Part shown: piece after piece, positions 4,646 through 53,028 of the stretch
How positions within the stretch are numbered: the first letter of the stretch is position 1
Layout: each line of letters starts with the position of its first letter
Origin: a bacterium
GTDB lineage: Bacteria; SAR324; NAC60-12
Assembly: GCA_965205865.1 (NCBI GenBank)
Contig: CBDBHR010000024.1
Location: 1 to 64,000, forward strand
Direction: 5' to 3'
Length of the DNA stretch: 64,000 bases
The notes under the pieces: model-generated
What the model was told of the DNA's origin: nothing
Databases searched by the model: none
The model's input: only the letters and a program-made list of their open reading frames with translations
Position numbers and translations under genes: made by a program

Positions 4646-4768
4646 GCCCAACGTCAAGCTCACCTGCGCCCACCTAATGAGGAGTGAGACAAAAGAAGTG
4701 ATCATGATCCCCTTACAAAACGTTGAAAAAAGCGTAGGGTGGGCGTCTGGTGCAGCGTCTGGTTGTGC
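4646..4768 (-). other. Integron attC recombination site
   Basis: On the minus strand: R'' GCACAAC, arm GCTGCACCAGACGCCCACC, arm GGTGGGCGCAGGTGAGC, R' GTTGGGC. Two unpaired extra bases. Lies just after a stop codon. Confidence 0.8.
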
Positions 4769-33393: not shown

Positions 33394-35178
33394 CTAAAAC
33401 CCCATTTCTTTCTTCAGCGCCTGGTCAATCCAGAGGCGGGCGAAGACGCCATTTAAGGCCATGTTGCCCATTTGCATTTCCCCGTTATACCCGATGAGCC
33501 ACGGTTGGTTCGCGTTAAACTGGGGCGCTCTCCCCGCCCAGATATACCAGTGGTTTTTGATAATGTACATATCGGCCTCGATAATCACCTTCTGCTGCTC
33601 CTCCAGGGTCGTCGCAGCATTGGCGGCTTCCACCATGGCGTCATACACCGGGTCTTGGGCATCCGTAAAGTTCAGATGAGGAGCCGCCGAGGTATTCCAG
33701 GCTAACTGCCCCAGAGGGTTCCACTCGTAGCCCGGAACCGCATCAATAATCCCATCATGAAGTTGTTTTCGTGTGTGATAAACGCCGTAAGTAGTGCCGT
33801 CGACCTCCTGAATCTCCACAGCAACGCCAATCTTACCCCAGTAGTTGGCCACTAATTCTCGAAAGGCTAAATCCCAGCGATTGAAATGGATCAAGACGGT
33901 CTTGAAGCGAATGCCGTCGGCGCCGCGCGGATACCCCGCCTCATCCAGGAGCTTCTCGGCCCCATCCGGGTCATAGGTATATTCTTGCTGAAGCGCTTCG
34001 GGCCACTCGTCAAAGGGGATGACATAGCCCTTTAAACCAATCCCATTCAACCCCATCGGTTTCCATTCGGCCCACCCCCTGAAGTAGGTCTCGTTAATGG
34101 TCTCCAGGTCCAGTGCTTTCTGCAATGCTATGCGTACCCTGAGATCGTCAAAGGGCGGCTTGCGCACGGCAGTCGCAAAAGAGGTTTCCGAGCGAAAGGC
34201 AAAGGGATGCAGCGCGATTTCGGGGTTGGTCTTCTTGAGGCTCTCTGCCTCGTCGATGGTAAATATTTGAGAGACGCCGAGGTGCCCGATGTAATCCAGC
34301 TTCCCCGAGCGCAGTGCCGCCATACGGGTGGGGTCTTCCGGCAAAATCAGGGCCCTCAACTCGTCAACGTAGGGCAAGCGGTTCTGCGGGTATTTTTCGT
34401 CGGTGCCCCAGTAGTCCGGATTCTTGACCCAGGTCATCGAGCTGCCCTCGACCCAGTCGGTCAGCATAAAGGGGCCGGTACCGACCAGGTTCCTCCAATC
34501 CTTCACATCGCCGTGTTGCCGGATGACCTCGGGGGGCTGGATAAAAACAATGGGATCGTCGAGGATCGTCAACAACGCACCGGGCTGTGGTTGCTCCAGC
34601 TTAAACACAACCGTATCTTTGTCGGTGGCGGTGATCGATTCGAATGGCAAAGCGTTGATAGCCGTAGCAAAGGTGCTCGGTTCGGTGAAGCCGCTACCCA
34701 TACCCGTGAGGCGGTGGAAGTTAAACACGATATCATCAGCTGTCAGCGCACGGCCGTTCATGGGTGCCTTGTCATGCCAGTGCACACCCTGGCGGATTTT
34801 GAAGACAATCGTGAGTGGGTCGGGCTGCTCCCAGCTTTCCGCCAGCTGCCCTCTGATGGCAAAGAGAGGCGTGAAGTTTGACTTAAAGTGGTGTTCGTTC
34901 CGATCGATTCCCCAGTTTCCGTCAGCTAACTTCTCGACAACGCCACTGTGGGCGGCGCCTGCCGGTGAACCAAACCAGGAGTCCGTATGCGGAGGCTCAC
35001 TCTTCTTGGCATAGGTCAAGGTGCCGCCATACGATGGCGCGACTACCACCTTACCGGTGCTGGGGTCGGTCACATACTTCTGAGCGGCAGCCGGACTGAC
35101 CCAAAATGCAGTCACCATCAGGATGAGGGTGAGCAGAATCGATTGAATTTTACTTATTTTATTTTTATTGATTGGCAT
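33394..35178 (-). CDS. Peptide/nickel ABC substrate-binding protein (SBP2); alternative in-frame start 35286
   Basis: Signal peptide, APSYGGTL, LAESW, GTGPF and RLWIDQ motifs. Confidence 0.95.
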   Translation of the reverse strand: MPINKNKISKIQSILLTLILMVTAFWVSPAAAQKYVTDPSTGKVVVAPSYGGTLTYAKKSEPPHTDSWFGSPAGAAHSGVVEKLADGNWGIDRNEHHFKSNFTPLFAIRGQLAESWEQPDPLTIVFKIRQGVHWHDKAPMNGRALTADDIVFNFHRLTGMGSGFTEPSTFATAINALPFESITATDKDTVVFKLEQPQPGALLTILDDPIVFIQPPEVIRQHGDVKDWRNLVGTGPFMLTDWVEGSSMTWVKNPDYWGTDEKYPQNRLPYVDELRALILPEDPTRMAALRSGKLDYIGHLGVSQIFTIDEAESLKKTNPEIALHPFAFRSETSFATAVRKPPFDDLRVRIALQKALDLETINETYFRGWAEWKPMGLNGIGLKGYVIPFDEWPEALQQEYTYDPDGAEKLLDEAGYPRGADGIRFKTVLIHFNRWDLAFRELVANYWGKIGVAVEIQEVDGTTYGVYHTRKQLHDGIIDAVPGYEWNPLGQLAWNTSAAPHLNFTDAQDPVYDAMVEAANAATTLEEQQKVIIEADMYIIKNHWYIWAGRAPQFNANQPWLIGYNGEMQMGNMALNGVFARLWIDQALKKEMGF

Positions 35179-35523
35179 AATTTTTCTCCTATTCAAATTA
35201 TTAAAAATAATAGTGAGGGCTGTTTTGAAACATGTTTTCACTCCCGAAAGCACGTTCTCGACGATGCTTCTGATTATTCGTTCCATTTTGACCTTTCATA
35301 TCAGGAGTTAAAAAAGCAATATTCCCCATGAATATTACCATATCAAAAAAACCGATCCATTGGCTCCAGCATGGGGCAATGCACCCTGACCTTTCAATTC
35401 TCTTGAGGAATTTCCATTGGCTGAAATGAACTGAGGGGTAATTTAAGGATCTCTCCCTGAAGACTTGAGCGCCGCTTCCGCGTACGGCCCCGTCGAGATA
35501 AGATAAGGGGGAACAACCCAATG

Positions 35524-36793: not shown

Positions 36794-37087
36794 ATGAAAT
36801 ATCAAATTGAAATCAAACCTGGGGCACAGCAAGATCTGAGTTATTATAGCTCGTATATCCAGAAAATTATTGTAAAAGCGATTGAAAAGCATTTACAATA
36901 TGATGCCAATATTCAGACAAAGAAAAGAAAGGAGTTTCGAGAGAACCCAATAGCAGCTTGGGAATTACGAATAGGAGAATATCGTGTGTTCTATGAAATT
37001 GAGGGAAGTAATAAAGTCAATGTACTGGCTATCGGACATAAAGAAAATCATGTTTTGTTTATACGAAATGAGGAGGTGAAGTTATGA
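36794..37087 (+). CDS. RelE/ParE-family toxin
   Basis: MKYQIEI..A..DL, WELRIGEYRVFYEI..V.VLAIGHK motifs. Confidence 0.85.
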   Translation: MKYQIEIKPGAQQDLSYYSSYIQKIIVKAIEKHLQYDANIQTKKRKEFRENPIAAWELRIGEYRVFYEIEGSNKVNVLAIGHKENHVLFIRNEEVKL

Positions 37088-37332
37088 AAACCATTGATCT
37101 AACAAAAGAAAAACATTCCATTGAAAAAATATTAAGTATGGCTAAATTAGACACTGTTCTGATTCAAGGAACTGATGGAGTCCAGTATATTTTGGAAGAG
37201 GCTGATGAATTTGAAAAAGAAGTTGCTACTTTAGGGAACAGTGAAAAATTCATGGCTTTTTTACAAAAGAGATCAAAAGAAAAGGGAGAGATATCCTTAG
37301 CGGATATGAAAAAAAATCTAGGTGTTTCATAA
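37084..37332 (+). CDS. Putative antitoxin
   Basis: Small ORF overlapping the toxin stop (ATGA); C-terminal ISLADMKKNLG. Confidence 0.7.
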   Translation: MKTIDLTKEKHSIEKILSMAKLDTVLIQGTDGVQYILEEADEFEKEVATLGNSEKFMAFLQKRSKEKGEISLADMKKNLGVS

Positions 37333-37545: not shown

Positions 37546-37681
37546 AACTTCTAAAATAAAATTTCTAAAAAATGGATCAACCTGACTTCTTACCCGCACT
37601 TTTTCAATCGAAGCTAATCAAAAGGTTCAAAGTTCATTGCGTTATTCAAAATTTAGTGGAACGGGTAAGAAACAGGTTAAG

Positions 37682-38575
37682 CTACTCGCGCTCGCCAGTC
37701 AGGGTCGGCAGGACGTTCGCCAGAGTGATGCCGAAGTCGTGTTCCTGGACGTGTTGTAAAACCGGGAAATTCAACTTGTTCTGGCCTGCGAGACTTTTCA
37801 TCCGGTGAGGTGTGGGACTGCCGGCCACCCGATGCCAGTCGATCGGCGTCTCCGGATCGCAGGTGCGCAGCGAAACCGCGAGGCGCCGATCGTCGGTCGT
37901 CTGCGTCGCGTGTATGGTGTTGAGGCTCAGCAGCAGCAGGTCGCCGACCCCCACCTCCGGAGTCTCCATGACATCCTCGATTTCGAGGTTCTCCTCGTGC
38001 CAGAGGACCCCACTCCAGTCGGAAAAGTACAAGGTGCCCCCATCACGAAGCGCGAACAGTCTACTCGCGCCCGAGCGCTGACAGAGGTTGAACACTCGCG
38101 GCGACTTCTCGCGAAGCCGATCCCAGGGAATCACGCGCAGTCCTGCCTCGGTGGGGGAAGGCTTGACCAACGGAATCCAGTAATTGAGATGAGTCCGATT
38201 GTACTCGGTCAGGTAGAAGTGATCGTGATCCTGATGCCAGCGATTATTGGCTACCGGCGTCTGGAGATAGAGGATTTGATAGAGCGCGGCCTTGGCTCCG
38301 GTGACTCTCTGAGCAAATTCTTCCATCCGCGGACCTATTCTTTGGAAGGTCTCTCGTCGTCCCATTGCGTTAGCACGCAGCGCTCCCGTTTGACCGGTAA
38401 CCGGCTTGTCGCCAAGGTGCTTCGCCGCATGCTTGGTTTTCGTTAGTGGGGCATAGTCTGGGCTGGCATCGAATTCTGCCACGAGGAAGTCGATCTCATC
38501 ACGGCTCAGAAATTCCGGGATAACGCAGAAGCCCCGTTTCTCGAGCGAGGAGGCTATCGTCTTGAAATTGGTCAT
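37682..38575 (-). CDS. PhyH-family Fe(II)/2-oxoglutarate dioxygenase
   Basis: GFCVIPEFLS, WHQD, NYWIPL, GDLLL...IH and RLAVSLR motifs. Confidence 0.85.
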   Translation of the reverse strand: MTNFKTIASSLEKRGFCVIPEFLSRDEIDFLVAEFDASPDYAPLTKTKHAAKHLGDKPVTGQTGALRANAMGRRETFQRIGPRMEEFAQRVTGAKAALYQILYLQTPVANNRWHQDHDHFYLTEYNRTHLNYWIPLVKPSPTEAGLRVIPWDRLREKSPRVFNLCQRSGASRLFALRDGGTLYFSDWSGVLWHEENLEIEDVMETPEVGVGDLLLLSLNTIHATQTTDDRRLAVSLRTCDPETPIDWHRVAGSPTPHRMKSLAGQNKLNFPVLQHVQEHDFGITLANVLPTLTGERE

Positions 38576-39700: not shown

Positions 39701-41467
39701 CTAATGCCCCATCTCTTTCTTCAGGTCCTGGTCAATCCAGAGGCGCGAGAGGATGAGACTATCCTCATTGGGTCCGAGATCGAATTCACCGTTGTAGCCT
39801 TTGATCCACGGATGGAGCGCCCACCACTGTGGACCTTTGGGACCCCATATCTGCCAATGATTCTCGATCGTGTACATATCTGCCTCTGCAATCAGCCTCT
39901 GCTGCTCCTCAAAGGTGGTCGCGGCCAGGGCGGCGTCAACCTTGGCGTCCAACTCAGGCCACTGATGTAAGGGGCGGTTCCACTGGGCGTCCGAGCGATA
40001 CCAGGTTACCGTCATGGAAGGGTTATAAGTGGTGCCCGCAATGCTGCCCATGATGCCTTCATAATCACGCGCGAATAGATCCTCGTGATATTTGGCCCAA
40101 TCCGTAATTTCATCAATCTCAAGCTCGACGCCAATCTCAGCCCAGTAGGCGGCAGCGATTTCTGAATAGCCTCCTTTCAAGCCCCCGAGGACCCTCATGC
40201 GGGTCTTGAAGCCATTGGGATAGCCCGCTTCCGCCAGCAGCTGCTTCGCCCCTTCCGGGTCGTACCGATAGCCCTTCTTGACCTCTTCGGGCCACTCTTC
40301 AAAGGGGATGTAATACCCTTTCACGCCGATCATCCCCTGGGGGGTCGGATCGGCCTCACCCTTAAAGTACGTAGCCGCAATGGTCTCCAGGTCCAGGGCC
40401 ATCTGCAGGGCCTTGCGCACGCGGAGGTCGTCAAAGGGCGGCTTGCGCACGTTTGCAGCAAAGGCATTACCCGACCGAAACCACTGCTTGTACAACACGA
40501 TGTCGGGGTTGGTCTCCCGGAGGCTATCTGCCGTGTCGATAGAAGTGATCGCACCCCCTGAAGGGCCTCTGAGATCAATCTTGCCTGAGCGCAGTGCCGA
40601 CATACGAGTGGCTTCCTCCGGAATCATCAAATATTTTAACTCGTCAATATAGGGCAAACGGTTCTGCGGGTACTTTTCGTCATGACCCCAGTAGTCCGGA
40701 TTTCGGGTCCGGGTTTCTGAGCTGCCCTCGACCACATCAGTCAGCAGAAAGGGCCCGGTGCCAGACAGGTTCCTCCAGTCCTTTGAGTCCCCATATTGCT
40801 TGATGACCTCCGGCGGCATGATGTATGTGAAGAGGTCGAGGGTGATGATGTGAAACGCGGAGAGGAAGGGCTTCTTGAGCTTCATGACAACCGTCGCATC
40901 GTCGGTGGCCGTGATCGACTCGAAGGGGATGCCATTGAGGAGGGCAGCGCCACCAAAGGAAGTCGGTCCGGCGTCGGTGAAGTCGCCCAGACCCAGCATA
41001 CGGTGAAAGGTAAACTCGACATCCTGCGCCGTCAGGAGACGGCCGTTCATCGGGGGCTTTTTGTGCCAGCGAACGCCTTGACGGATGTGGAAGATATAGG
41101 TTTTGTTGTCGGGCATTTCCCAACTTTCCGCCAGTCTCCCTGTGATGACAGACAGGGGGAACGGGTGTCCCGATTTCAAGTCCCATTCGTCTCTGGATAC
41201 TCCCCAGTTGCCGATAGCCAGCTTCTCCAAAATGCCCGTGAGTTGAGGGTCTGTCCAGTTGTAAAAGGGGTCCCAATTCCAATATTGACCTCCGGTAGCG
41301 AAGGTCAGTGTCCCGCCATATCGAGGAGCTTCCACCATTTCACTAGTGGTGGGGTCTTTGACCATCTCGGCAGCCATCGCTGCCGAACTGACCCCGAGAG
41401 CGGCCACCATCAGGGTGAGGGACAGCAGGATGGCACTGAAGGTTGATTTGCTTTTTTGATGATCCAT
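39701..41467 (-). CDS. Peptide/nickel ABC substrate-binding protein (SBP3); alternative in-frame start 41566
   Basis: Same motif set as the other SBPs. Confidence 0.95.
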   Translation of the reverse strand: MDHQKSKSTFSAILLSLTLMVAALGVSSAAMAAEMVKDPTTSEMVEAPRYGGTLTFATGGQYWNWDPFYNWTDPQLTGILEKLAIGNWGVSRDEWDLKSGHPFPLSVITGRLAESWEMPDNKTYIFHIRQGVRWHKKPPMNGRLLTAQDVEFTFHRMLGLGDFTDAGPTSFGGAALLNGIPFESITATDDATVVMKLKKPFLSAFHIITLDLFTYIMPPEVIKQYGDSKDWRNLSGTGPFLLTDVVEGSSETRTRNPDYWGHDEKYPQNRLPYIDELKYLMIPEEATRMSALRSGKIDLRGPSGGAITSIDTADSLRETNPDIVLYKQWFRSGNAFAANVRKPPFDDLRVRKALQMALDLETIAATYFKGEADPTPQGMIGVKGYYIPFEEWPEEVKKGYRYDPEGAKQLLAEAGYPNGFKTRMRVLGGLKGGYSEIAAAYWAEIGVELEIDEITDWAKYHEDLFARDYEGIMGSIAGTTYNPSMTVTWYRSDAQWNRPLHQWPELDAKVDAALAATTFEEQQRLIAEADMYTIENHWQIWGPKGPQWWALHPWIKGYNGEFDLGPNEDSLILSRLWIDQDLKKEMGH

Positions 41468-41755
41468 TTTTTTCCTTTCTGCTTTTTGATTAAAAACAAG
41501 ATTTAGGATTGATTTAAAACCTGCTTTCTCTCCCGAAAGCACGTTGTCGAGGATTTCTCTACCCATTGGGTCTCCTTCATTTTGGAGTGATCAAAAAACC
41601 GATTCATTGGCTCCAGGATTGGGCAATGAACCCTGACTTTTCAATTCTTTTGAGGATTTTCCATTTGCTGAAATGAACTTTGGTGTACTTTAAGGATCTC
41701 TCCCTGAAGACTTGAGTGTCCCCGTCGAGATGAGATAAGGGGGGACAGCCCAATG

Positions 41756-41932
41756 AACTTGGGATCTGGAAACTGGGAACTGGAAGCTTGTGAATTGGAA
41801 GCTTGTGAATTGGGGCTTGAAACTTGTTGCTTTGAGCTTGGGGCTTTGGCCTTGGAATTTGGGGCTTGGAACGAGGAACTGAGAGCTGGGTGCTTGTGAC
41901 TTAATACTGGGAACTGGGAACTGGGAACTGGG
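41756..41932 (-). repeat. Degenerate heptamer array (~25 units)
   Basis: CCCAGTT x3 then degenerate 7-mers on the minus strand. Confidence 0.9.
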
Positions 41933-41938
41933 TGTTTG

Positions 41939-41967
41939 ATCTTACTCTCATTTCAACCATTTGTCAA
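41939..41967 (-). promoter_or_regulatory. sigma70 promoter of SBP3
   Basis: TTGACA-17nt-TAAGAT. Confidence 0.75.
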
Positions 41968-42079
41968 TATTTTTTTATACTTGAAACGGGTTAATTTTAA
42001 AATCTGTGAAAATCTGTGCAATCTGCGGATAATCTGTTACATCATTGTATGTGTAAAAACTTTTGTTCATGTACTTAAT

Positions 42080-42385
42080 TTATATAATCGTTCTGCAAAT
42101 GATGGTCAAGGTTTTTTTGAATAGGCCGACTCATTCATTCAGGAGTGTATTCTGATGATCAACAAAAATACCTTTTCATATTGAAATACAGAAGTCAACA
42201 TTTTTGTTTGGCACTGTTCAATTCCCCGTTGACAGTTTCTAAAAATCCTCTGGTGATGATATGATGTTTCACATGACTTTCGGCTAAATAAATATGAGCG
42301 AAATTGAAATAAAACCTGCAGCCAAAGATGATTTCTCAAGAACTATCACAAAAGAAAACAAAAGACCAGCAGAAATGCTTTAACC
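42080..42385. repeat. Second copy of the AT-rich upstream block
   Basis: Aligns with 35746-36045. Confidence 0.88.
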
Positions 42386-42650
42386 CTCTTTGAGGCCTCA
42401 GAGGGGGTGAAGGCCTCTTTTGATCGTTGGCTCTCTTGTGAAAAACATGATGCCCTGAGGAAGGCCGCGACTTGTTTTCCTTCCCCCTCACAAGCCTGAA
42501 CTTTGCGATTGGCACCGCAGAAAAACTCGACAGAATAGACAAATTTTCTCAAAATCAACGATTCTCTCCAAAAAGGCATTCCCTCACCCAATTGAGATCA
42601 GTGCCTTACCAAGGAAGAAAAAGCAGCCGATGAGGAAACAATTTCCACTA

Positions 42651-43819
42651 GTGTGTCGCTCTTTTATTAATGTGTAAAAAAATCCTTGGTTTGCTATACT
42701 ACGAGCTGTCCTTTTTTTTGCATATATGGAGACAGCATGAGAAAAGCACCAAGTATAAAACTGACCCGGGAAGAACGGGATGAATTGGGCAAAACCGCAC
42801 GCCGTCATACCGGAGCGATGCGAGACACTCGTCGTGCGCGCATCATCCTGTTGGCTGCTGATGGCCTTAAGAATCAAGAAATTGCCAAAACGCTTGGAAC
42901 CAGCGGTAATGCCGTTGGAAAGTGGCGACGGCGCTTTGTTGAAAAAGGAATAACAGGTCTCAATGATGATCCGCGGCCTGGCAGGACACGCATTTATGGA
43001 GCGGATAAAATCGAGGAGATTGTGAAGAAAACCATTGAAGAGAAGCCTGAGGACCGTACCCATTGGAGCACGCGATCGATGGCCAAGGCAGTTGGCGTAG
43101 GCAAGACAACCGTCGGTAAAGTATGGAAGGCCCATCGCCTCAAGCCTCATCTGGAAAAAACATTTAAGTTGTCGCATGATAAGCATTTCACTGCGAAACT
43201 GAAAGATGTCATCGGTTTGTACATGAATCCTCCTGAGAAAGCGCTGGTCTTGAGCGTCGATGAGAAATCACAAATCCAGGCACTCGATCGCACCCAGCCA
43301 GGTCTGCCACTGAAACCAGGGCGCAATGGCACCAGAACTCATGATTATATCCGTCATGGCACCTGCTGTCTGTTTCTGCTTTGAATACGCAACAGGGATG
43401 CTCGCTCGCTGTGAAAAACGGCACCGACACCAAGAGTATCTGCGCTTCCTGCGTCTTATTCAAGACTACCTCGAAGCAACTGCAGGTAACTTGATCCTGG
43501 ACAATTACGCCACCCACAAACATCTTAAGGTGAAAGAATGGCTCAAAAAAACCCGCGATTTCACCCGCATTTCATTCCTACTTCCTCCTCATGGCTGAAC
43601 ATGGTGGAACGCTTTTTTGGCAAGATCACTGCAGAACGGATTCGACGAGGCGCCTTCAAAAGCGTGCTCGATTGACCGAAGCCATCCATAGTTACATCGA
43701 GACACACAATCGCAACCCAAAACCCTATGTCTGGACTAAAACTGCCGAAGAAATTATCAACAAACTCAAACCTGTCTACCAAATGACCAATAATACAATG
43801 TATTAAACAGGCAATACAC
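42651..43819 (+). mobile_element. IS630-family element, copy 3 (transposase 42737-43806, frameshifted)
   Basis: Both ends intact, TA duplicated (42649-42650, 43820-43821), CTAG target. Multiple 1-2 nt deletions at ~43370-43675. Confidence 0.93.
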
Positions 43820-43997
43820 TAGGGAAACCCTCTTTGCTTTCCTGGAGCACCTGAGGGAGGAGGTCAAATCCTCCGTGAGGCGCCTTCCTCCCGTGACTAT
43901 TTTGAAAAGAGAACCCTTTGATCAAGATTGAAAATCGTTCTTCTTTTGTCGGGTGATGGCTCACTTTTCAGGAGCGATTGAGTTGAGATTGAAGCTG

Positions 43998-44520
43998 TTA
44001 AAGCAGGCGCTGTAGCTCTTCTTTCCTTTTTCGAATCAACTCTTCTTGAGGAGTCATCTCTTGTTTGAGAAAGTTATGAGTCATGTGGATTTGACCAATC
44101 AGTTTTCCTTTTTCCAGACCTTCTTCTCGACCTTCTTCCAAACCTTGTGATTTTCCGATTTGGATCAGTTCTTTTCCGGCGACGGTTTCCTCCAATGGGG
44201 TCAATTTAAGCATGTTTTCTATCTCCTTTATCGTCAATTGAGAAAACTTCTCTACAATAGCTTAGTACTCTGTCAACGTTATGAAATCAGGGGACACGTA
44301 ACAAAAAAGTACATGTCCCCCAATTTTCAACCCGACAATAGTTGAGTGACAGGGTAATAGGTTAACAACTCGATCAAATGTCTTTTCTCAGAATCCCCTG
44401 AATCGAACCTCTCCAGCGTGTTTTTCCATTGAGGTATTTTTTCTTCCAATTCTTCTCGACTCTCCAGGACAAAAGGTTCCAAAACCATCAGCGCTTGTGA
44501 GGTTGGGTCCTGTGCTTTTC
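43998..44520 (-). pseudogene. C-terminal remnant of a DUF2887/Rpn-like protein, interrupted by a GGGGACA..TGTCCCC hairpin at ~44285-44327
   Basis: TIKEIENML.LTPLEETVAGKELI..G.EEG.EEG.EKG; upstream frame VLEPFVLESREELEEKIPQW. Confidence 0.55.
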
Positions 44521-44573
44521 ATGAAGTTTTGTGGCAGACTGTCAGTTCATCTCTACTACATTGGTCATGATCA

Positions 44574-44602
44574 GGTGGACGCAAGTGACCTTGACGTTGG
44601 CT
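44574..44602 (+). other. 3' half (L'/R') of an attC site at the start of the Uma2 cassette
   Basis: GGTGGACGCAAGTGACCTTGACGTTGGCT closely matches the L'-R' arm of the 4646-4768 attC (GGTGGGCGCAGGTGAGCTTGACGTTGGGC). Confidence 0.75.
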
Positions 44603-44734
44603 GGCGAATGGGATGCTGACCATTGTAATCAGCATAAACAAAATGGAATTTTCAAATATTGAACAAAGATTGGGAATCTGGTACAATATCTGGTACAACA
44701 AAAGAAAAATTTAAAAACTCTAAAAAGAGGTCTT

Positions 44735-45211
44735 ATGAATTGGAAAGAGGTATGCGCAGATCCTAATTTAAGCGATTTACCGTACAAAATTGAACTCAAT
44801 GAAAGAGGACAAATTCTTATGAGTCCAGCTAGGCTTTTACATTCACTCTATCAAGCAAAAATTATTAAATTGCTAATAAAATTGATTGATCATGGTGAAG
44901 TCATCCCAGAGTTTGCTATCGCCACAGAGAAAGGGACAAAAGTACCTGATGTTGTCTGGTGCTCAGAAGAATTACTCAATCAGGTGAAGTATGATCCTGA
45001 AAGTTCAATAGCCCCTGAGTTATGTATTGAGGTTCTCTCACCTACGAACACAGACAATGAAATCGATGAAAAAAGAAATCTCTATTTCAGTTTAGGGGCT
45101 AAGGAAGTCTGGATATGTGATGAAAAAGGAGAAGTGCAATTTTACAATAAGGCTGGAAAAATAAAAAACTCAAATATGTGTCCTCCTTTCCCTGATTTAG
45201 TTAAAGTCTAG
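44735..45211 (+). CDS. Uma2-family (PDDEXK) endonuclease; integron cassette gene
   Basis: ELNERGQILMSP...HS, VPDV, APELCIEVLSP and YF..GAKEVW motifs. Confidence 0.9.
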   Translation: MNWKEVCADPNLSDLPYKIELNERGQILMSPARLLHSLYQAKIIKLLIKLIDHGEVIPEFAIATEKGTKVPDVVWCSEELLNQVKYDPESSIAPELCIEVLSPTNTDNEIDEKRNLYFSLGAKEVWICDEKGEVQFYNKAGKIKNSNMCPPFPDLVKV

Positions 45212-45218
45212 CCCCCTC

Positions 45219-46040
45219 AGCCAATCGGGATAGGAAGGGGTTTTTCTCCCGTCCCTCCCACACCACCCCGCATACGGGTCCGTACGGGGCGATTCCCAAA
45301 GAGTGTCGGGCCGTAGCCGGACCAGATTTGCAACCACAAACCTGTACGTTTATTCGTCCCACAACGCACCTATTTTAATCATCTCCACCGGTCGGCTTCA
45401 TCAATGTACAGAGCATATGGGATAGAGCGTTCTCTTGGGTTCGGGCCTTCACTCTCCAGGAGCTACTATGCCCTCGGCTGACTTCTGACCGCCTTCGTTG
45501 CCGATTACTCGACACCGCGCTACCTGAGACAAACGAGAAGAAGGAGAGTGATGCGCAAGAGAGGAATTAACCGCTCCTGGCTCTTCTAGTCTTCATCTCA
45601 CTATCTCCGACCGCATCACGATCAGATCTCCCCGGGTAAGAGCATGAACTTTCCCTACACAATCGCAGCATTTACCATCCTCCTTAATCCGAGTGGACAT
45701 CGCAATGTCGTGCTTGCTCGCCCCGAAGTTCAGCCTTATATGCTGTTTCTGTCCGTCGACTCGTAGGTTTGCGCTTAGGCTTCCTCCGCACGGCTCGTCA
45801 CCTCCCCGCACTTGCCCTCGGCTAGTACTTTTTAAAGTTGTAATCATAAGCTGACTAGTATACTTTTCGGATAATGTACAGGGGACTCACACCCCATAAG
45901 TTCATGCCCATGCCGGGCACACACAAGCCGCATGCAGCAGACGTCCACTACTCACTTTGACTCCGTGGATTGAGTAAAGTTTTACCGTCATCGTCGCAAT
46001 GTTTTATGGGTGGACGCTGCTGATGACTTAATTGTTAAAT
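45219..46040 (+). other. attC site of the Uma2 cassette, split by a group II intron (45219-45223 + 45923-46040)
   Basis: Intron removal gives R'' AGCCAAC, arms CATGCAGCAGACGTCCAC / GTGGACGCTGCTGATG with two unpaired bases, and R' GTTAAAT. Confidence 0.85.
45224..45922 (-). ncRNA. Group IIC-attC intron, ORF-less
   Basis: 5' end GTGTGCCCGGCATGGGC. IIC-type domain V GAATCGCCCCGTACGGACCCGTATGCGGGGTGGTGTGGGAGG. Domain VI ends CCCGAT. Inserted at TTGT|T on the attC bottom strand. Confidence 0.88.
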
Positions 46041-46097
46041 GCTCTGTTCACAGACAAAATTTCTTATTTATTCCCCTCTAATCCAGTAATATTATTT

Positions 46098-46126
46098 TTG
46101 ACAAAATGCACACGATGTATTACTAT
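46098..46126 (+). promoter_or_regulatory. sigma70 promoter of the TA cassette
   Basis: TTGACA-17nt-TACTAT, 6 nt before the ATG. Confidence 0.7.
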
Positions 46127-46132
46127 TAGGTT

Positions 46133-46414
46133 ATGAAAGATTTTGAATGGAACAAAGAGAAAAATGAATGGCTAAAGGAACAGCGGGACATTTCTTTTGA
46201 AGAGATTGTTTACTTTATTGAGAATGGAAGTTTGCTTGATAGTTATGAGCATCCCAATAAAAAGAAATATCCGAGACAATCAATATTTGTTGTTCAAACA
46301 GATTCTTATATTTATTTAGTTCCTTACGTTGAAGAAGATGCCTATTATTTTCTGAAGACAATCATTCCCAACAGTGAAGCAAAAAAGAAATATATGGAGG
46401 AGAACAATGAGTAA
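46133..46414 (+). CDS. BrnT-like toxin
   Basis: FEWNKEKNEWLK..R.ISFEE, HPN...YP.Q and FLKTIIP motifs. Confidence 0.85.
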   Translation: MKDFEWNKEKNEWLKEQRDISFEEIVYFIENGSLLDSYEHPNKKKYPRQSIFVVQTDSYIYLVPYVEEDAYYFLKTIIPNSEAKKKYMEENNE

Positions 46415-46676
46415 AAAAAATTACAAGTTCGATGCCCAAGAGCAAGCAATTCTTGATTCTTTCAATCGTGGAGAATGGGTATCAAAAGGCGAAAACCTGG
46501 ATAAATACAAAGAGGTGGCAAAGAAAACCTTCGCAAAAACGCATCGGATCAATTTTCGCGTGAGTGAAAAAGATTTTAGAGGAATTCAAGTTAAAGCTAG
46601 AGAGGAAGGAATCCCCTACCAAACCTTAGTATCCAGCGTGGTTCACAAGTATTTAACAGGTCAATTGAAACAATAG
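46407..46676 (+). CDS. Cognate antitoxin (CopG/BrnA-like)
   Basis: RINFRVSEKD...IQVKAREEGIPYQTLVSSVVHKY. Confidence 0.85.
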   Translation: MSKKNYKFDAQEQAILDSFNRGEWVSKGENLDKYKEVAKKTFAKTHRINFRVSEKDFRGIQVKAREEGIPYQTLVSSVVHKYLTGQLKQ

Positions 46677-46684
46677 ATTGACGC

Positions 46685-47945
46685 CATAGGTGTTCGGGAT
46701 TTTAGATCTCATGCAGCCTTTTTAAGCTCTAGGGTTTGATCGATAGGGCTTTTCGAGGTTGTTTGCCTGAGAGTTTCGAGTTCCTCGGTCAAGATTCGTT
46801 TCAGTCGCATTAACGAAGTTTCTCTGTGTTTGTAATTGGGGTCGTAGATCACATCGGCAAAAAGAAGAATTTTCCAGAGTAAGTTCTCGAATGCCTGTGG
46901 AGCAGGCTCTAGAAAAAACGGACAAAATCTTCGGCTAATAAGGCCGCGATTTTTGCGATCCGTTGAAAGGAAATCGCCAATTTCTTTTCTGGCTTGAGTT
47001 GAGCTTGTCCGATATGCAGAATTGAAGAGGAGGCGAGATGCCCGGCCAGAGAAGCCAAGAGCAGGTTTTGAATAATATAAGGATTGTTCGAGGTCATGCG
47101 CTCGGCATTCAAGGAGGATTTGTTCGATTTAAAAATCAGTTCCACTTGCCACCTCAAACGATACAGGGGGTAGAGGAGGGCAGCGGGAACCTTTAAATTG
47201 GTTAAGTAAAAGTGGTTGTGGCGTTGGCTCTTATTCCAGAAACCGATCGCCCGACAGCTCAACAGTTGCTCTTGATGGAGTTTCTCGATACGAACCTCAA
47301 TGAGGTCTTGACGCTTTTTACGAAAAGGAATGCTCATCAAGTCCTTACCGATCCGTTCCAGAGGGTAAAGCTCGTCGAATCGACTAACTGAATGCTGCTC
47401 ACGCCCAACTCTTTGAGCAGCTGCGAGCCATAACCGGCTCTTTGGCACAGGTGGCTCATCAAGTGCGAAACCGTCTCCAGCAGCAAGGTGTTCAGTCGTT
47501 TGCGCGAGAGGCGTTCCCAGAAGGCACTGCGGCTGATGTCATCTCCTAAATGCTTTTTCATCAGGCGCCGCAAGCTTTCCAGCGACGGGAGTTTGGTATC
47601 GAGTTGAAAACAGAACATCAAGTTGACGACAAAATCGTAGGGACTGATTTCAGTCCGCTTGTCCTGAGAGGGAAGAATGCGTTGAAGCACTTGTTTCATA
47701 GTGCTAAGAATGTTAATTTCTTTCATGGTGGTCTCCTGCTGATCGGGAGTGGAAACTCCCTTGGTTTTGGTATTTCAGCAAGGATACCGTCTTCAATGTC
47801 AATAGGCTATTGAAATGATGATGCGAAAAACTCCGAATACCTCTGATTCCGGAATGTAATTAACCAGTTAGGAAACTGACAGAATATTGCTACCAAATCT
47901 TTGTATATAACTGAAATTATTGAATTTAAATCCAGAACACCTATG
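46685..47945 (-). mobile_element. IS4-family element with internally deleted transposase (fragments 47337-47726 and 46909-~47360)
   Basis: TIRs CATAGGTGTTCGGGATTT / AAATCCAGAACACCTATG; VDST, YLTNL and YRLRWQVELIFK motifs. Confidence 0.85.
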
Positions 47946-48235
47946 AGGTTGGAAGTTTATCATTTTTATGTTGGCTCACTGGAATTCCCTCAAAACCGGT
48001 GATCACAGACGTTATACATTGAGACCTGGACTAGAATGTGGGGAAGGTGAACAGACTGGAGAATGAGGATGAGTGAAGCGCAAAAGATTGATCTCATCAC
48101 GCATTAAGCGTCCTGGAAGGATGGCATAGGACTTGACATCTTTCAGGGGAGGTGATAGAGATAGAGTGCATTCTTGAGGAGCATCCTAGTGGTTTAAAAC
48201 AGTGCGATAAGAAGGACCTGATAGCAAATCTCAGC

Positions 48236-49258
48236 ATGGAAAAAGAGGGATGGATCGATGGTATGCCTCGTGATGAGCGGGGATTCTGGCACCCTGACAG
48301 AGGGACAGGCCCCCCCTAGTCCTTTGTTTGCCTGGCCACCCAAGCCCCTCGCGGCTTTCAAATACCTGTTTCGTTTCCCGGGTTACCTGTATCCGTGGCA
48401 AATCCTCTATTTTGGCCTCGCCACGGTCACGTGGCTCTACTTCCTGCCCGCCTTATCCCGCTGTGTCACCTTCCAACCAAGCTGGATCCTGGAGATGTTT
48501 GTCCGCAACCTCGTGCTGCTGGTCCTCATCTTTGGTGCCTGGCACTACTGGCTTTGGTCGCGAAAGTCCCAGGGGCTCCAGTACAAATACAACGCCGAGT
48601 GGCTGGAGACGGGAAAGCGGAAGTTCCTCTGGGGAGACCAGCTGCGCGACAACATCTTCTGGTGTTGTGTCAGCGCGGTTCCGATCTGGACGGCGTATGA
48701 AGTGCTGATGATGTGGGCCTACGCCAACGAGATGCTGCCCTACATCGATCCGCGAGAAGAGCCGGTCTACTTTATCGTGCTGCTTGTCTGTATACCTATC
48801 ATTCGACTCTTCCACTTCTACTGGGTCCATCGTCTCTTGCACTGGCCCCCCCCCTCTTCAAAAGGATACACTACATCCATCACAAAAACATCAACCCCGG
48901 GCCCTGGTCCACTCTTGCCGCGCATCCGATTGAGCACATTATTCTCTTCAGCAGTGTGCTGATTCACTGGATCGTGCCCTCGCATCCCATCCACGTGCTG
49001 ATGAACATGCATCACAACACCATCAACGCGCATCATGGGCATCTCGGCTTCCAGAAGCTGGTCCTCAAGGGAAACCTCCAGGTTGGCGGTGCCAGCAGTT
49101 ATTTTCATCATCTGCATCACCGTTACTTCGAGTGCAATTACGGAGAAACCGTCGTGCCGTTGGATCATTGGTTCGGGACCTATCACAATGGCTCTCCCGA
49201 GGCCCACGAAGCGATCCTGAAGAAGCAAGCCCAGAAAAACATGAGGCATAGTGCCTAG
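48236..49258 (+). CDS. Sterol desaturase / fatty-acid hydroxylase family protein with two poly-C frameshifts
   Basis: His boxes HRLLH, HYIHH and FHHLHH. Frame breaks at C7 (48310-48316) and C9 (48846-48854). Confidence 0.85.
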
Positions 49259-49424
49259 AATGCAGGAATCGACTGAAACGGATGTTTGACTAGGGGCTCC
49301 TTTTGTCCGCTTACCAGATTTACGTTTCCTCTATTCTCCAGCGGGTCTTCCGTTTCCGGCAAAAAATTCCCTCCCACCCACTTGGGGCAGGAGGGAGGAA
49401 CAGGGGCGAGTTTCGAAGGAATGC

Positions 49425-51206
49425 CTAGAAGCCCATTTCTTTCTTCAGCTCCTGGTCAATCCAGAGTCGGGAGAACACCACGGTGCGGTCACTGTCGCCA
49501 ATATCGCTTTCCCCGTTGTAGCCTTTGACCCAGGGCTGGTGGGCGTGAAATTGGGGAACCCTCCCGCCCCAGAGGATCCAGTGGTTTTTTGTGGCATACA
49601 TGTCTGCCTCTCTAACCAGTCGCTGGTGCTCCTCAAGGGTGGTGGCGTTTTGCGCCGCTGCCCACAAACGGTCCATCTCGGGGTCCTGGGCACCGGTGGG
49701 GTTCCATCCGCTGGTCGAGACAAACTGGAGCAGCGCGGAGGGGTGATTTTCGTAGCCTGAGATATAGCTGATCAGACCGTCGTATTCGTGCTCACGAACA
49801 CGCGCGGCCCAATTGGCCCCATCCGTATTGATCATCTTGACCTCCACGCCAATTCTACCGAAGAACTCGATTGCCAATTCGAAGTAGCTATGATCCCAAA
49901 CCGAGATCGGCTCAAGCGTGGTCGAGAAGCGAATGCCGTCCGAGCCGCGCGGATAACCGGCCTCATCCAGGAGTTTTTCAGCCCCTGCCGGGTCATATCG
50001 ATAGAACTGCTTGATCTCCTCCGGCCACTGCTCGAAGGGCGTGACATAGCCGACCATAGCGGGCCCGAGGAATCCCTGGGGTGTGATGTCCGCCCAGCCC
50101 TGCCAGTAGGTTTTGTTGATCGTCTCCAGGTCGAGTGCCATCTGCAGCGCATGACGAACCCGGATGTTGTTCATCGGTGTCTTTCTCTGGTTCAGACCGA
50201 ACGACGTCTCCGAGCGGTACGAGTAGGGTGACAGCACGATGTCGGGGTTGGTCCGCTTGAGGCTCTCTGACTGGTCGATGTTGCTGATCTGCGAGTTGCC
50301 TAATATGGCGTTGACCTCGATGCGACCCGAGCGCAGCGCCGCCAGTCTGGTCGCCGGTTCCAGCAAGACCAGAGCCCGCAACTTGTCTATATACGGTAAG
50401 CGGTTCTGCGGATACTTTTCATCGAAGCCCCAGTAGTCGGGATTCTTTTCCCAGCTGATGGAACTGCCTTCGACCCAGTCAGTCAGCATCATGGGGCCGG
50501 TGCCAACCAGGTTGCGCCAGTCCTGCACGTTGCCATGCGCCTCGATGACCTCGGGCGGATAGACATAGTTGAGGCTGGCGACAAGAATCGTCTTGAGGGC
50601 ATCGAAGTTTAGCTTACCCAGTCGAAAGACGACGGTCGATCCTTCGGCTGTTACCGATTTGAAGTCAACATCTTTGATCGACGAGTGGTTCGCGGCTCCT
50701 GCAGTCATCTCGGTAAAACCGCTACCAAGGCCCAGCTGACGTTGAAAGTTGTATTCGACATCCTTGGGGGTCAAGGCCCTTCCGTTCATCGGGGTCTTGT
50801 TATGCCAGTGCACCCCCTGGCGGATGTGGAAGATATAGGTCAGCGGGTCGGGGATCTCCCAGCTTTCAGCCAGTTGGCCTCTGATAATCTCCGCGGGGAT
50901 GTACGTCGTTCTGAAGTTGAACACGTCACGGTCGACTGCCCAGTCCCCGATGCCAAGCTTCTCAACAACGCCGGAGGCGGCTAACGGCGCGGATCCTCGG
51001 TCCGCAGTGTCGGGGGTTTCCGGTTCAACGGTCAGCGCATAGGTGAGCGTCCCGCCGTACTCAGGTGCTGTCACCATCTTGCCGGTGCTGGGATCTTTGA
51101 CCATCTTTTTCTCAGCCGCAACGGCCGGGCCCATCCAAAAGGCAAACGCACCCAGGATGAAGGCCAGCAGCAGGGCTTGGATTGTTCTGGTTTTGCTTTT
51201 TTCCAT
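49425..51206 (-). CDS. Peptide/nickel ABC substrate-binding protein (SBP4)
   Basis: Same motif set as the other SBPs. Confidence 0.95.
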   Translation of the reverse strand: MEKSKTRTIQALLLAFILGAFAFWMGPAVAAEKKMVKDPSTGKMVTAPEYGGTLTYALTVEPETPDTADRGSAPLAASGVVEKLGIGDWAVDRDVFNFRTTYIPAEIIRGQLAESWEIPDPLTYIFHIRQGVHWHNKTPMNGRALTPKDVEYNFQRQLGLGSGFTEMTAGAANHSSIKDVDFKSVTAEGSTVVFRLGKLNFDALKTILVASLNYVYPPEVIEAHGNVQDWRNLVGTGPMMLTDWVEGSSISWEKNPDYWGFDEKYPQNRLPYIDKLRALVLLEPATRLAALRSGRIEVNAILGNSQISNIDQSESLKRTNPDIVLSPYSYRSETSFGLNQRKTPMNNIRVRHALQMALDLETINKTYWQGWADITPQGFLGPAMVGYVTPFEQWPEEIKQFYRYDPAGAEKLLDEAGYPRGSDGIRFSTTLEPISVWDHSYFELAIEFFGRIGVEVKMINTDGANWAARVREHEYDGLISYISGYENHPSALLQFVSTSGWNPTGAQDPEMDRLWAAAQNATTLEEHQRLVREADMYATKNHWILWGGRVPQFHAHQPWVKGYNGESDIGDSDRTVVFSRLWIDQELKKEMGF

Positions 51207-51276
51207 GATTCCTCCGCTTTCGTTTAGATTTTGGTTTTGATTCATTCGACGTCTCATGATTTCTCCTTTATCAATA

Positions 51277-53028
51277 CCCAAATTGAGCGATTCTAAAAAA
51301 GGATCAGATTTTCAAGATGATTTTTTTGCCTGAGAAAGGCAATCATTCTGAAATCAGATTTTGATCATCAAATCCATGGATGTTTGAGTGAGAATGAGCA
51401 TCAAAATGCTGTTTTCAGATGTGGAAGGTCTTCATTTCTCATGTTTTGGACGCACTTATCCCCTTAAACTTTAATGTTTTTGTTTTTTAATTGAAGCGAA
51501 ACCCGTTGATCAGATTGGCGCCAATGCGTGCTGGCAGGTGGCAAATAGTTGGTCCAATTGCAAGCGCTCAAAGGTCTTTTTTGGTATTTTCAAGATCAGT
51601 TTTCCGGCATGACGAAGCAGTTTGCCTGCCGTATCAAGAAACTGGCGCCGGAAGGTATCAGCATACATCGTTACCGCAATCACTGGCTTGCTGACATCTT
51701 CTTTGAAGGATTCGAAGAGGTTATTGCCAAGCAGCATCAGATAGTACCATGCGGTATTGGAAATGAAGTCCTTGAAGGGAAGTTGTTGATGACCAAAGTT
51801 TTTCAGCGCCCGGTTGGCCAGTTCATCCTTTCCCCGTCCGTGGTACGAGCCAAGGATGCTATGAGCATCGATGCGCTTTTCTTCAGCGGCTTGGCTGAGT
51901 TGGCCATCAATGGCCTCTCCCATACCAAGGTTCGTAATGATCACGCCATCATGATCCAAACCCGGCAAAGAGAGTTGGCTATCGTGTTCAATCAAGCGGC
52001 TGTAGATCGTGCGACGAGCCTTCTTCCATGTCCCCTGCTGGCTCTTAAACTCGGTGTACTGCCAGATCTCCTTCTTGCCCGATGAAGTGAAGGTCTGCCA
52101 GTCAGTGGCTTCTTCCGCAGCATTCCTCACATTGGCATAGGACTTTCCTCCGCTTCAGCTAACCGATGTTCAGTCGTTCACAGGTTTCAAAGATTTTTTC
52201 GTCAAAAAAACCGGTGTCCATGCGCACCATGATTGGTACATCATCTCGGTATTGGCGGCGAATCCTTTTCACGATATGAACCAGCATATTCTGAACAGTT
52301 TTCCCGTGATTCGAATGTTTGCTACCTCCGCGAAAAACTGCGTCAACCATATAACGACCCCAATTCATCTGCAGGGGATGAAATCCTTTGACCATCTTGT
52401 AAGTCGGCTGGACACCATGGCGTTTCAGGGCATCATCATTATCAAGTACCATCGAATCCAGACCCAACACAATCACCGTTGGACAAGTCTTCTTCAGTCT
52501 CCAGATAAACAGTATCTGCAGCAGATGACGAAACAGGTAGACTCGTACAAAAGAGAACTTTCCAAAAAATCTTTTCACGGCATGCGAGGAGGCAAGGTCT
52601 TGCTCACTGCATGACAGCAAGGCGGCATAACCCTCGCCCCTTTTGAGGTGATCGAACCAACTGAGATGACGGCTGCTGCCGTCCATGAAAAAACAGAGGA
52701 TCTGCGCAAAAAAATCAGAGACAGCAATTCCTTTTTTATTTTTACGCATCGAACCAAACAACCTTTCGATGATCGGCATCAGCCGAATGCTTTGCAGATA
52801 CTGGGCAAACAAGGCCAATCCGGCACGACTTGTCAAGTGTTCATCGGTTGGCTGAATGGCATCAATTATCTGTTTCTTTTTATCCTGAACTGTTATATTT
52901 TTTCCCATAAAGCTCTCTACCTGTTGGGTTGTGTTAGATTTTGTGAATTTTTTTATTTTAACCACTGAAATATAACACATTTTTCCCAAGGTTGGGAGCT
53001 TTTTTTATTACGAATCGCTCAACTTAGG
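51277..53028 (-). mobile_element. IS1380-family element; transposase (51510-52908) broken near 52159
   Basis: TIRs CCCAAATTGAGCGATTC / GAATCGCTCAACTTAGG, CAATA duplicated; LTSRAGL, VRMDTGF and YHGRG.DE motifs. Confidence 0.9.

Follow-up and report, generated by a model that had tools for sequence, protein, structure and literature searches.

A 64,000-nucleotide (nt) stretch of DNA from a bacterium of the SAR324 lineage (positions 1 to 64,000 of contig CBDBHR010000024.1, assembly GCA_965205865.1; hereafter "the window") carries on its plus strand a Uma2-family gene and a pair of genes resembling the BrnT/BrnA toxin-antitoxin system. Between them, on the minus strand and antisense to both neighbors, lies a 699-nt element that we identify as a group IIC intron without an open reading frame (ORF) for a reverse transcriptase (RT) (Table 1). 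We consider it likely that this element, referred to here as the mini-intron, is a non-autonomous intron of a sub-lineage whose RT-encoding members occupy integron attC sites. An earlier interpretation made from the letters of the window (the sequence-only reading) had given the element the same ends and strand and had placed it antisense to a cassette, within an attC site. The ends and strand are borne out by Rfam matches and by identical ends in all eight complete copies of the family, and the orientation relative to the cassette-side gene is likewise as claimed. The attC assignment is weighed below.

Table 1. Features of the mini-intron and its surroundings, in window coordinates
Feature	Position	Strand	Basis and remarks
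ORF-less group IIC intron	45224..45922	-	699 nt; 5' GTGTG at 45922, 3' ...CCCGAT ending at 45224
Domain I core	45641..45807	-	Rfam group-II-D1D4-3, 109.8 bits, E 1.4e-21, full model 1-170
Candidate exon-binding site 1 (EBS1), ACAA	45838..45841	-	Spans intron nt 82-85 and is the complement of the 5'-exon TTGT; assignment inferred
Domain II/III region	45444..45519	-	Rfam group-II-D1D4-1, 53.7 bits; within the part diverged from the RT-encoding family
Domain IV remnant, place of the lost RT ORF	45294..45432	-	Fold and alignment with full-length copies; limits approximate
Domain V	45262..45293	-	32 nt; RF00029 alignment and consensus fold
Domain VI	45226..45260	-	Fold; bulged A at 45231 is the candidate branch point
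5' exon, long imperfect hairpin	45923..46040	-	ATTTAAC...CAGCAGCGTCCAC...GTGGACG[T]CTGCTG...GGCTTGT; TTGT (intron-binding site 1, IBS1) at 45923-45926; forms the 123-nt attC-like site together with 45219-45223
3' exon start	45219..45223	-	Includes IBS3 (T at 45223) and what remains of the R''-like box, GT/TGGCT
Uma2-family gene (putative restriction endonuclease fold)	44735..45211	+	Pfam PF05685, E 4.6e-17; ends 12 nt before the 3' end of the intron
BrnT/BrnA-like toxin-antitoxin pair	46133..46676	+	Weak Pfam matches below curated cut-offs; on the 5'-exon side
Promoter-like site of the BrnT/BrnA-like pair	46098-46126		Matches 10 of 12 positions

The intron assignment rests on matches to several Rfam models and on the predicted fold. 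Both models of domains I to IV score above their gathering scores (32 for group-II-D1D4-3 and 35 for group-II-D1D4-1), and the Intron_gpII model of domains V and VI (gathering score 40) matches positions 45224-45294 of the minus strand from end to end, just under its gathering score, with 38.4 bits (E = 1.2e-5 in a search of 1.4 kb). The intron RNA would begin with GUGUG at 45922 and end with ...CCUAUCCCGAU at 45224. In its minimum free energy (MFE) fold, domains V and VI form separate hairpins, a long-range helix closes the structure, and the energy is -253.7 kcal/mol, compared with a mean of -237.5 kcal/mol for 20 shuffled sequences (z = -2.6). Domain V has CGC at the position of the catalytic triad, a 2-nt bulge, and a 4-bp upper helix. 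Among 10 related introns, its pairs show compensatory changes (CG in 4, AU in 3, and GC in 3; CG in 4, UA in 5, and UG in 1; GC in 3, UA in 3, AU in 3, and GU in 1; AU in 8 and GC in 2), and in the mini-intron itself every pair of this domain is formed. Together with the bulged A of domain VI, these observations agree with the sequence-only reading that domains V and VI are present; that reading had named the lack of any domain V match as grounds for giving up the intron, and such a match exists. The candidate EBS1 motif, ACAA, occurs once in intron nt 1-300 and is found at the homologous place in the relatives L060, L062, and L065.

No RT gene was found in the intron, as had been claimed: the longest open frame on the intron strand has 97 codons, and an ORF of 84 amino acids beginning with ATG (45593-45847, minus strand) has no Pfam match. 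What is left of domain IV is a stump of about 130 nt with GGAG and ATG, after which comes a frame of 10 codons (beginning at intron nt 537, window position 45386); this is probably the start of the lost ORF. Domain I, domains II and III, the domain IV stump, and domains V and VI are all kept, so that the ribozyme appears complete. A simple consensus scan of the plus strand within 45224-45922 revealed no promoter-like site that could serve as Pout, the outward-facing promoter of domain I or II associated with IIC-attC introns; a TTGCCC hexamer is located at the homologous place in the intron, and its spacing to any -10 element is poor. Two members of the IIC-attC lineage without a predicted Pout are mentioned in a portion of PMC3001079.

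Copies of the element were sought by BLAST within the source assembly (4.74 Mb in 30 contigs, 92% complete, with the window as contig C24), and their flanks were extracted. Three 699-nt copies exist, each at a different site: the window copy on C24 (100%) and copies on C23 (99.7% identical) and C10 (99.4%). They are accompanied by three RT-encoding relatives of 1953, 1953, and 1950 nt (on C15, C25, and C26), by a derivative of the mini type that deletion has shortened to 512 nt (C28:370646), and by fragments and a decayed copy on C3. The last of these, within 81200-84000, has a 36-nt deletion and an insertion of about 1.76 kb near intron nt 67-81. All eight complete family copies begin and end with identical letters and are flanked as TTGT/intron/T (slashes mark the splice boundaries or the insertion point). 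Beyond these letters their flanks are unrelated, except for a hairpin common to the C24 and C26 copies. In a genome of the same genus (G001), a Uma2 homologue of 84% identity has CCTCAGCCAACAA at its 3' end, unbroken at the place that corresponds to the insertion point of the window; this fixes the 3' splice boundary and the TTGT independently. The three near-identical copies and the intact RT-encoding relatives support the proposal that the mini-intron is a non-autonomous copy mobilized in trans. The sequence-only reading had raised this as a possibility and had called for a search for identical copies and an RT-encoding parent; near-identical copies and RT-encoding relatives were found, so the single-copy remnant that it had contemplated does not apply. 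To judge from its copies and relatives, the mini-intron is very probably non-autonomous and moved in trans by the RT of its relatives.

Several observations on the other intron copies of this genome stand apart from this argument. A 713-nt ORF-less copy of the RT-encoding family (C28:366703-367415) lies 3.2 kb from the 512-nt mini derivative and is a loss of the ORF independent of the 699-nt mosaic type described below. The decayed C3 copy contains a 237-nt insertion resembling a miniature inverted-repeat transposable element; its ends are the inverted repeats AACCTGAGTTCGA...TCGAACTCAGGTT, and a duplication of TTAAAATA borders it. Genome-wide, 38 domain V matches have E <= 0.001, of which 10 exceed the Rfam cut-off, and they belong to several unrelated intron families; a recurrent 96-nt match of about 31 bits occurs at more than 12 sites in the genome.

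Because the mini-intron has no RT, its class was assigned from the RT of the 1953-nt relatives. The 454-codon RT ORF is intact in all three long copies, identical in two of them and 97.8% identical in the third. Its product has RVT_1 and GIIM domains and a YADD motif, lacks an endonuclease domain, and scores 338 bits against TIGR04416, the NCBIfam equivalog of group II RT/maturases (cut-off 300). Compared with solved structures, it scores 405.8 bits against the GsI-IIC RT, 298 against the Eubacterium rectale IIC RT (7uim), and 243 and 237 against the RT-domain structures 5hhj and 5hhl, versus 110 against LtrA (IIA) and 101 against the IIB maturase 6me0; we take 7uim, 5hhj, and 5hhl to be class C enzymes. 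This class C affinity rules out an ORF-less intron of the cyanobacterial IIB type, which the Uma2 neighbor had suggested.

The same protein connects the family to integrons. Its best plasmid matches, at 44-49% identity, are encoded by introns inside class 1 integron arrays and antisense to the cassettes, one of them between the aadA1 and fosE/VIM-2 cassettes of a Pseudomonas putida plasmid and another adjoining blaIMP-4 on a Klebsiella plasmid. These introns have the same junctions as the family studied here, AATTGT/GTACGCCC...CCCGAT/T. A quick tree of 72 rows brought together the RT of the family studied here, two RTs borne by integrons, three relatives found on genome contigs, four RTs of a group with 62-66% identity, two other RTs of this genome as outgroups, and, among P0123-P0270, the first 60 representatives with 400-560 amino acids; the second P. 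putida copy, the C26 RT, and the truncated L065 ORF were left out. A more careful tree was built from 42 of these rows, picked to retain every major group. In the latter, the RT falls into an 11-row clade (ultrafast bootstrap 99, SH-aLRT 95) with both integron-borne RTs and relatives from metagenome-assembled genomes of Gammaproteobacteria, and the quick tree contains a 13-row clade (SH-aLRT 98) with both integron-borne RTs. Among 10 representatives that were looked up, two with Clostridium names lie outside the clade. The nearest relatives in named genome contigs are 86% identical ("Deltaproteobacteria bacterium TL4") and 63% identical (several copies in uncultured Gammaproteobacteria). The 63% relatives reside at hairpins with clean RYYYAAC and GTTRRRY boxes, for example, GCCCAAC...TTGT/TGGAC and GCCCAAC...TTGT/TAGGT. 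TTGT precedes the intron at six of eight related loci, and T is the first letter of the 3' exon in all 10 complete 3' junctions shown.

The RT clade shared with integron-borne RTs and the TTGT/T motif thus support placing the mini-intron, a class C intron, in the lineage that holds the integron-borne attC introns. According to a portion of PMC3001079, IIC-attC introns are a monophyletic subset of IIC introns that occupy the bottom strand of attC sites in the orientation opposite to the cassettes, with some members outside arrays. Part of PMC7923331 gives TTGT/T, at R'' of the attC bottom strand, as their consensus and reports that the use of terminators is retained. Bacterial ORF-less introns nearly always occur alongside related introns whose protein may act in trans, as stated in a section of PMC4424553. 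Matches to the intron DNA are present in 8 of the 41 genomes searched (including the source genome), with 22 matches in G008 alone, and the related genomes hold both ORF-less and tandem copies. Some of the latter are head-to-tail tandems (L059:45-402, and L081:68-805 and L074:5-402 on contigs C152 and C177 of G008), in which the next intron starts 0-1 nt past ...CCCGAT. The L059 intron has TATC instead of ACAA at the EBS1 place, which could pair with the terminal GAT of the upstream intron; such pairing could mean retargeting to intron ends.

The mini-intron is itself a mosaic. Its nt 1-300 are identical to the RT-encoding family at 297 of 300 positions. Past nt 300, identity drops abruptly to about 47% (a value given for nt 301-490 and for nt 301-631), and the 3' end matches at 62 of 70 positions. 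Because the diverged part matches group-II-D1D4-1 and has its own compensated domain V, it comes from a related but distinct intron lineage. The mosaic is also present in the C23, C10, and C28 copies, and the decayed C3 copy has about 95% identity to the mini-intron in either half. It follows that the mosaic arose before the near-identical trio; a role of the window copy as the founder of this mosaic type is not supported. That the 5' part is 99% identical suggests that exchange with the RT-encoding family has gone on; that this homogenization is kept by selection for recognition by the relatives' RT is an attractive but unproven idea.

The target site was examined with attC sites in mind. In attC sites, R'' (RYYYAAC) pairs with R' (GTTRRRY), L boxes are present, the bottom strand has extrahelical bases, and the length is about 57-141 nt. 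Without the intron, the bottom strand of the window reads ATTTAAC AATTAAGTCAT CAGCAGCGTCCAC ... GTGGACG[T]CTGCTG CATGCGGCTT GT/TGGCT, which in DNA folds forms an imperfect hairpin of 123 nt. Its base (AACAA with TTGTT) is paired, its spacers are unpaired, and a single T is bulged on the 3' (R''-L'') arm of the long stem. On the top strand (AGCCAAC...GTTAAAT), R' fits GTTRRRY perfectly and R'' has one mismatch to RYYYAAC. The intron sits between GT and T of the bottom-strand R''-like box. The hairpin recurs once in the genome, at 95.6% identity over 114 nt, as the 5' exon of the full-length C26 intron. Across the family, TTGT/T is the sole target sequence common to all eight copies, with hairpins upstream. 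In MFE folds, GT/T is paired to an upstream AAC at four of the eight target sites, versus 160 of 1,500 random TTGTT sites; two of the four paired sites are homologous, so that the independent count is three of seven. A metagenome scan with a 24-nt hairpin pattern gave 0 matches, and one with a 19-nt pattern of the Uma2 end gave a single match in an unrelated context, as expected by chance at that collection size. A second CTCAGCCAACAA site, on C28, proved to be a chance match inside coding sequence. Other attC-like hairpins in the window, from a crude scan, are one of 108 nt with 20 outer pairs at 37575-37682 (plus strand), after a ParE-like toxin gene pair (36794-37332), and one of 123 nt with 20 outer pairs at 4646-4768 (minus strand), which has a bulged T after GCG, as in the target hairpin of the intron.

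Given these features, the hairpin could be a true and possibly orphaned attC. It and the Uma2 gene would then form a cassette of a chromosomal integron, decayed or unassembled (a solitary attC or CALIN), and the intron, by separating gene and attC, would keep an integrase from excising the cassette. We entertain this possibility only tentatively. The 123-nt architecture, the R' and R'' boxes, the bulged T, and the unpaired spacers all fit an attC, the pairing of GT/T with AAC exceeds that of the random sites, and the hairpin is among the 16 best of 2,066 candidates in a crude genome-wide scan. That scan was home-made and yields many false positives; most of its candidates fall in coding DNA, and its specificity does not suffice to call arrays. 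Within 72,928 nt of integron regions from relatives, the hairpin finds its best match in the G005 array, where 21 of 24 positions agree with the R''-L'' arm of an attC lying in the same orientation (E = 0.14). Integron integrases scoring above the curated cut-off are present in 6 of the 41 genomes searched, all of the same family, and the genome of the same genus (G001) has a 122-bit integrase remnant with a stop codon. In the source assembly, by contrast, no integron integrase was found (the best TIGR02249 score is 43 bits, versus a cut-off of 265). The hairpin has only two copies in the genome and none in the 40 relatives searched, the C26 copy lacks a good R' box, and neither an attC-like hairpin after the BrnT/BrnA-like pair nor a neighboring array was found. 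A weak candidate at 44402-44508, of the same polarity, would frame an 833-nt cassette, but the homology between the Uma2 region and G001 starts about 130 nt past this candidate and ends inside R'', which are not cassette-like limits. The attC-like architecture and the frequency of integrons in this bacterial family therefore make an attC plausible, though unproven, and we call the insertion site "attC-like." Of the sequence-only reading, the insertion at TTGT/T stands in all eight copies, whereas the attC itself is opposed by the missing integrase and array and by the low copy number of the hairpin. The further claim that the intron blocks cassette excision by splitting R'' finds no support here, as the assembly contains nothing on which it could act.

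Two other accounts concern how the mini-intron arose and what it does now. The sharp break at nt 300 might mark a recombination junction: a crossover of a full-length intron at the attC-like hairpin with a mini-intron that sat at the Uma2 end would have linked hairpin and gene, leaving a mosaic intron as an intermediate of cassette genesis, a process for which a model involving IIC-attC introns is summarized in a portion of PMC7923331. In keeping with this, the hairpin is found elsewhere in the genome only as the 5' exon of a full-length intron (C26), and the homology between the window and G001 spans Uma2 up to CCTCAGCCA/ACAA and then stops at the insertion point. We nevertheless regard this scenario as improbable. 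The mosaic is shared by the copies on C23, C10, C28, and C3 and therefore predates the near-identical trio, the first 300 nt of the window copy lack the private variants of the C26 copy, and the two hairpins, with 5 differences in 114 positions, are less alike than the 5' parts of the introns. The common 5' flank also ends after about 117 nt; with a simple crossover, the entire flank would have come along. Gene-level homology, moreover, often stops near the end of a gene. No attC-like hairpin was found downstream of the G001 Uma2 homologue. No homology to G001 was detected beside the C26 intron on either side. The mini-intron could instead be an immobile relic, or a domesticated, protein-free ribozyme that hydrolyzes single-stranded DNA in the manner of HYERs, ORF-less introns of class IIC that have such activity, as cited in a portion of PMC11754743. 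A private change in domain VI of the window copy and a domain IV stump unlike that of the RT-encoding family would suit this view, which we think has little chance of being correct: three copies at least 99.4% identical at different TTGT/T sites and a deletion derivative point to recent retromobility, relatives with an RT and a 99% identical 5' 300 nt are present, and no defense or other functional context was seen. With RT-encoding relatives and a copy pattern of this type, domestication need not be invoked.

Some observations weigh against our preferred interpretation of a trans-mobilized intron of the attC lineage. The domain V/VI match lies 1.6 bits under the Rfam cut-off and is missing from the whole-window scan at the gathering level. 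The window copy has a private G-to-C change on the intron strand (plus-strand base 45251) that converts a G-U in domain VI to C-U, a weaker pair; the other two 699-nt copies keep the family letter G at this position, and contigs from public sequencing runs also show the family letter, in part derived from other copies. An RT-encoding member of the lineage that contributed the 3' part was not found in the assembly. Moreover, the domain IV stump, the usual binding place of the RT, lies in the diverged part, so that recognition of the mini-intron by the RT of its relatives is an assumption. In the tree, the attC group is anchored by genomic context, with S.ma.I2, B.h.I1, and other named references outside the data set, and the groups beyond the attC clade are anchored by Clostridium names only. 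Finally, part of the locus is present in 20 of 24 public runs (from 12 studies). In the contigs of four of these (two of unknown kind and two of RNA), the sequence breaks off where the intron ends, and 45223 is nowhere joined to 45923. The runs are therefore uninformative as to an empty site, splicing, or transcription. The same breaks explain the word shares of 0.63-0.71 in runs that had suggested intron-free alleles.

On the interpretation that we favor, the RT of the relatives would act in trans, aiding the splicing of the mini-intron RNA, binding this RNA, and copying it into DNA. The RNA would reverse-splice into single-stranded DNA at TTGT/T, at the 3' base of a DNA hairpin. The target would be chosen in the way of class C introns, by a 4-nt EBS1-IBS1 and a 1-nt EBS3-IBS3 pairing, with a stem-loop in place of IBS2. 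Because the RT has no endonuclease domain, synthesis of the DNA copy would presumably be primed from replication; replication-supplied priming of an endonuclease-less intron RT is described in part of PMC4424553. Mobilization of this kind could have given the three near-identical 699-nt copies and the 512-nt derivative. In the window, the target would have been the 123-nt attC-like hairpin just downstream of, and antisense to, the Uma2-family gene, and the insertion would have spaced two small plus-strand genes 699 nt further apart and put a structured antisense element between them. As an integron integrase is not detectable, the insertion probably has little effect at present.

In several respects the mini-intron resembles IIC-attC introns such as S.ma.I2, E.c.I7, Kl.pn.I1, and genome-borne members from Geobacter sulfurreducens and Nitrosomonas europaea, as these are described in portions of PMC3001079 and PMC7923331. 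They have in common the class C ribozyme, an RT (that of the relatives, in our case) lacking an endonuclease domain, the junctions TTGT / GT(G/A)(T/C)GCCC...CCCGAT / T, and a place at the 3' base of an imperfect hairpin with a bulge, in antisense orientation to adjacent genes. The mini-intron differs in having no RT gene, no integrase or cassette array in the assembly, and no Pout by consensus scan, and the RT of its relatives is only 44-49% identical to the integron-borne RTs. Class C introns that target terminators, such as B.h.I1 and GsI-IIC, share the endonuclease-less RT and the use of short IBS1 and IBS3 sequences with an upstream stem-loop, and four of the eight family sites are without the attC-like GT/T-AAC pairing in the MFE fold. 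Unlike these, the RT groups with the integron-borne clade rather than with Clostridium-named groups, and TTGT/T is a motif of the attC lineage.

The copy pattern is reminiscent of ORF-less introns mobilized in trans, of the Thermosynechococcus elongatus TeI3 type, cited in portions of PMC4424553 and PMC8919778. Both cases involve near-identical, multicopy ORF-less derivatives beside RT-encoding relatives in one genome, as well as mosaic and deletion derivatives. The mini-intron stands apart from these as a class C intron with a 4-nt IBS1 and hairpin recognition. Introns of the TeI3 type are reportedly chloroplast-like (IIB), with long EBS-IBS pairings, and reside in a cyanobacterial host. With HYERs (a portion of PMC11754743) the mini-intron shares only its anatomy, an ORF-less class IIC ribozyme of similar size; its relatives encode an RT, and the pattern of its copies is typical of retromobility.

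Among the neighboring genes, no defense or other functional context was seen with Pfam. The intron lies in an island of small genes (41600-49400) between two SBP_bac_5 genes; such genes occupy 33394-35286, 39701-41566, and 49425-51281 in the window. The island that holds the intron is flanked by fragments of DDE transposase genes at 46909-47726 (minus strand) and 43326-43598 (plus strand), matching DDE_Tnp_1 and DDE_3. A repeat of about 800 nt upstream of SBP_bac_5 (window 41600-42383; also L055:3400-4430) has dozens of 72-92% identical copies in G001, many of them near the intI remnant of that genome, and contains short tandem repeats (GGGAACTGGGAACTG...) around 41750-41930. This repeat is probably a shared leader of paralogous peptide-transporter operons. 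G001 (4.3 Mb) has about 40 OppC-type permease paralogues with 79-88% DNA identity, an unusual expansion of peptide ABC transporters.

The IIC-attC lineage, ORF-less IIC introns, and ORF-less introns beside RT-encoding relatives have all been described already, and for specialists the finding as it stands is ordinary. What is new is the mosaic structure of the mini-intron and the homology with a sister genome that ends at the insertion point. No description of ORF-less introns of the attC lineage was found in the literature searched, which excluded primary accounts of ORF-less bacterial introns. Compact ORF-less IIC ribozymes that, from their sequences, seem active could be of practical interest as tools of the HYER type, and the joining of Uma2 to the hairpin through the intron would, if true, be the first genomic snapshot of an intron-mediated joining of a gene to an attC. 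For the biology of this family, the mini-intron would represent a natural "parasite of a parasite" in class C, an RT-less ribozyme that has kept the rule of inserting at TTGT/T beside a bulged hairpin and has recently multiplied. It also indicates that the attC lineage persists in a genome without a detectable integron integrase, where its members exchange parts, as the homogenized nt 1-300 suggest.

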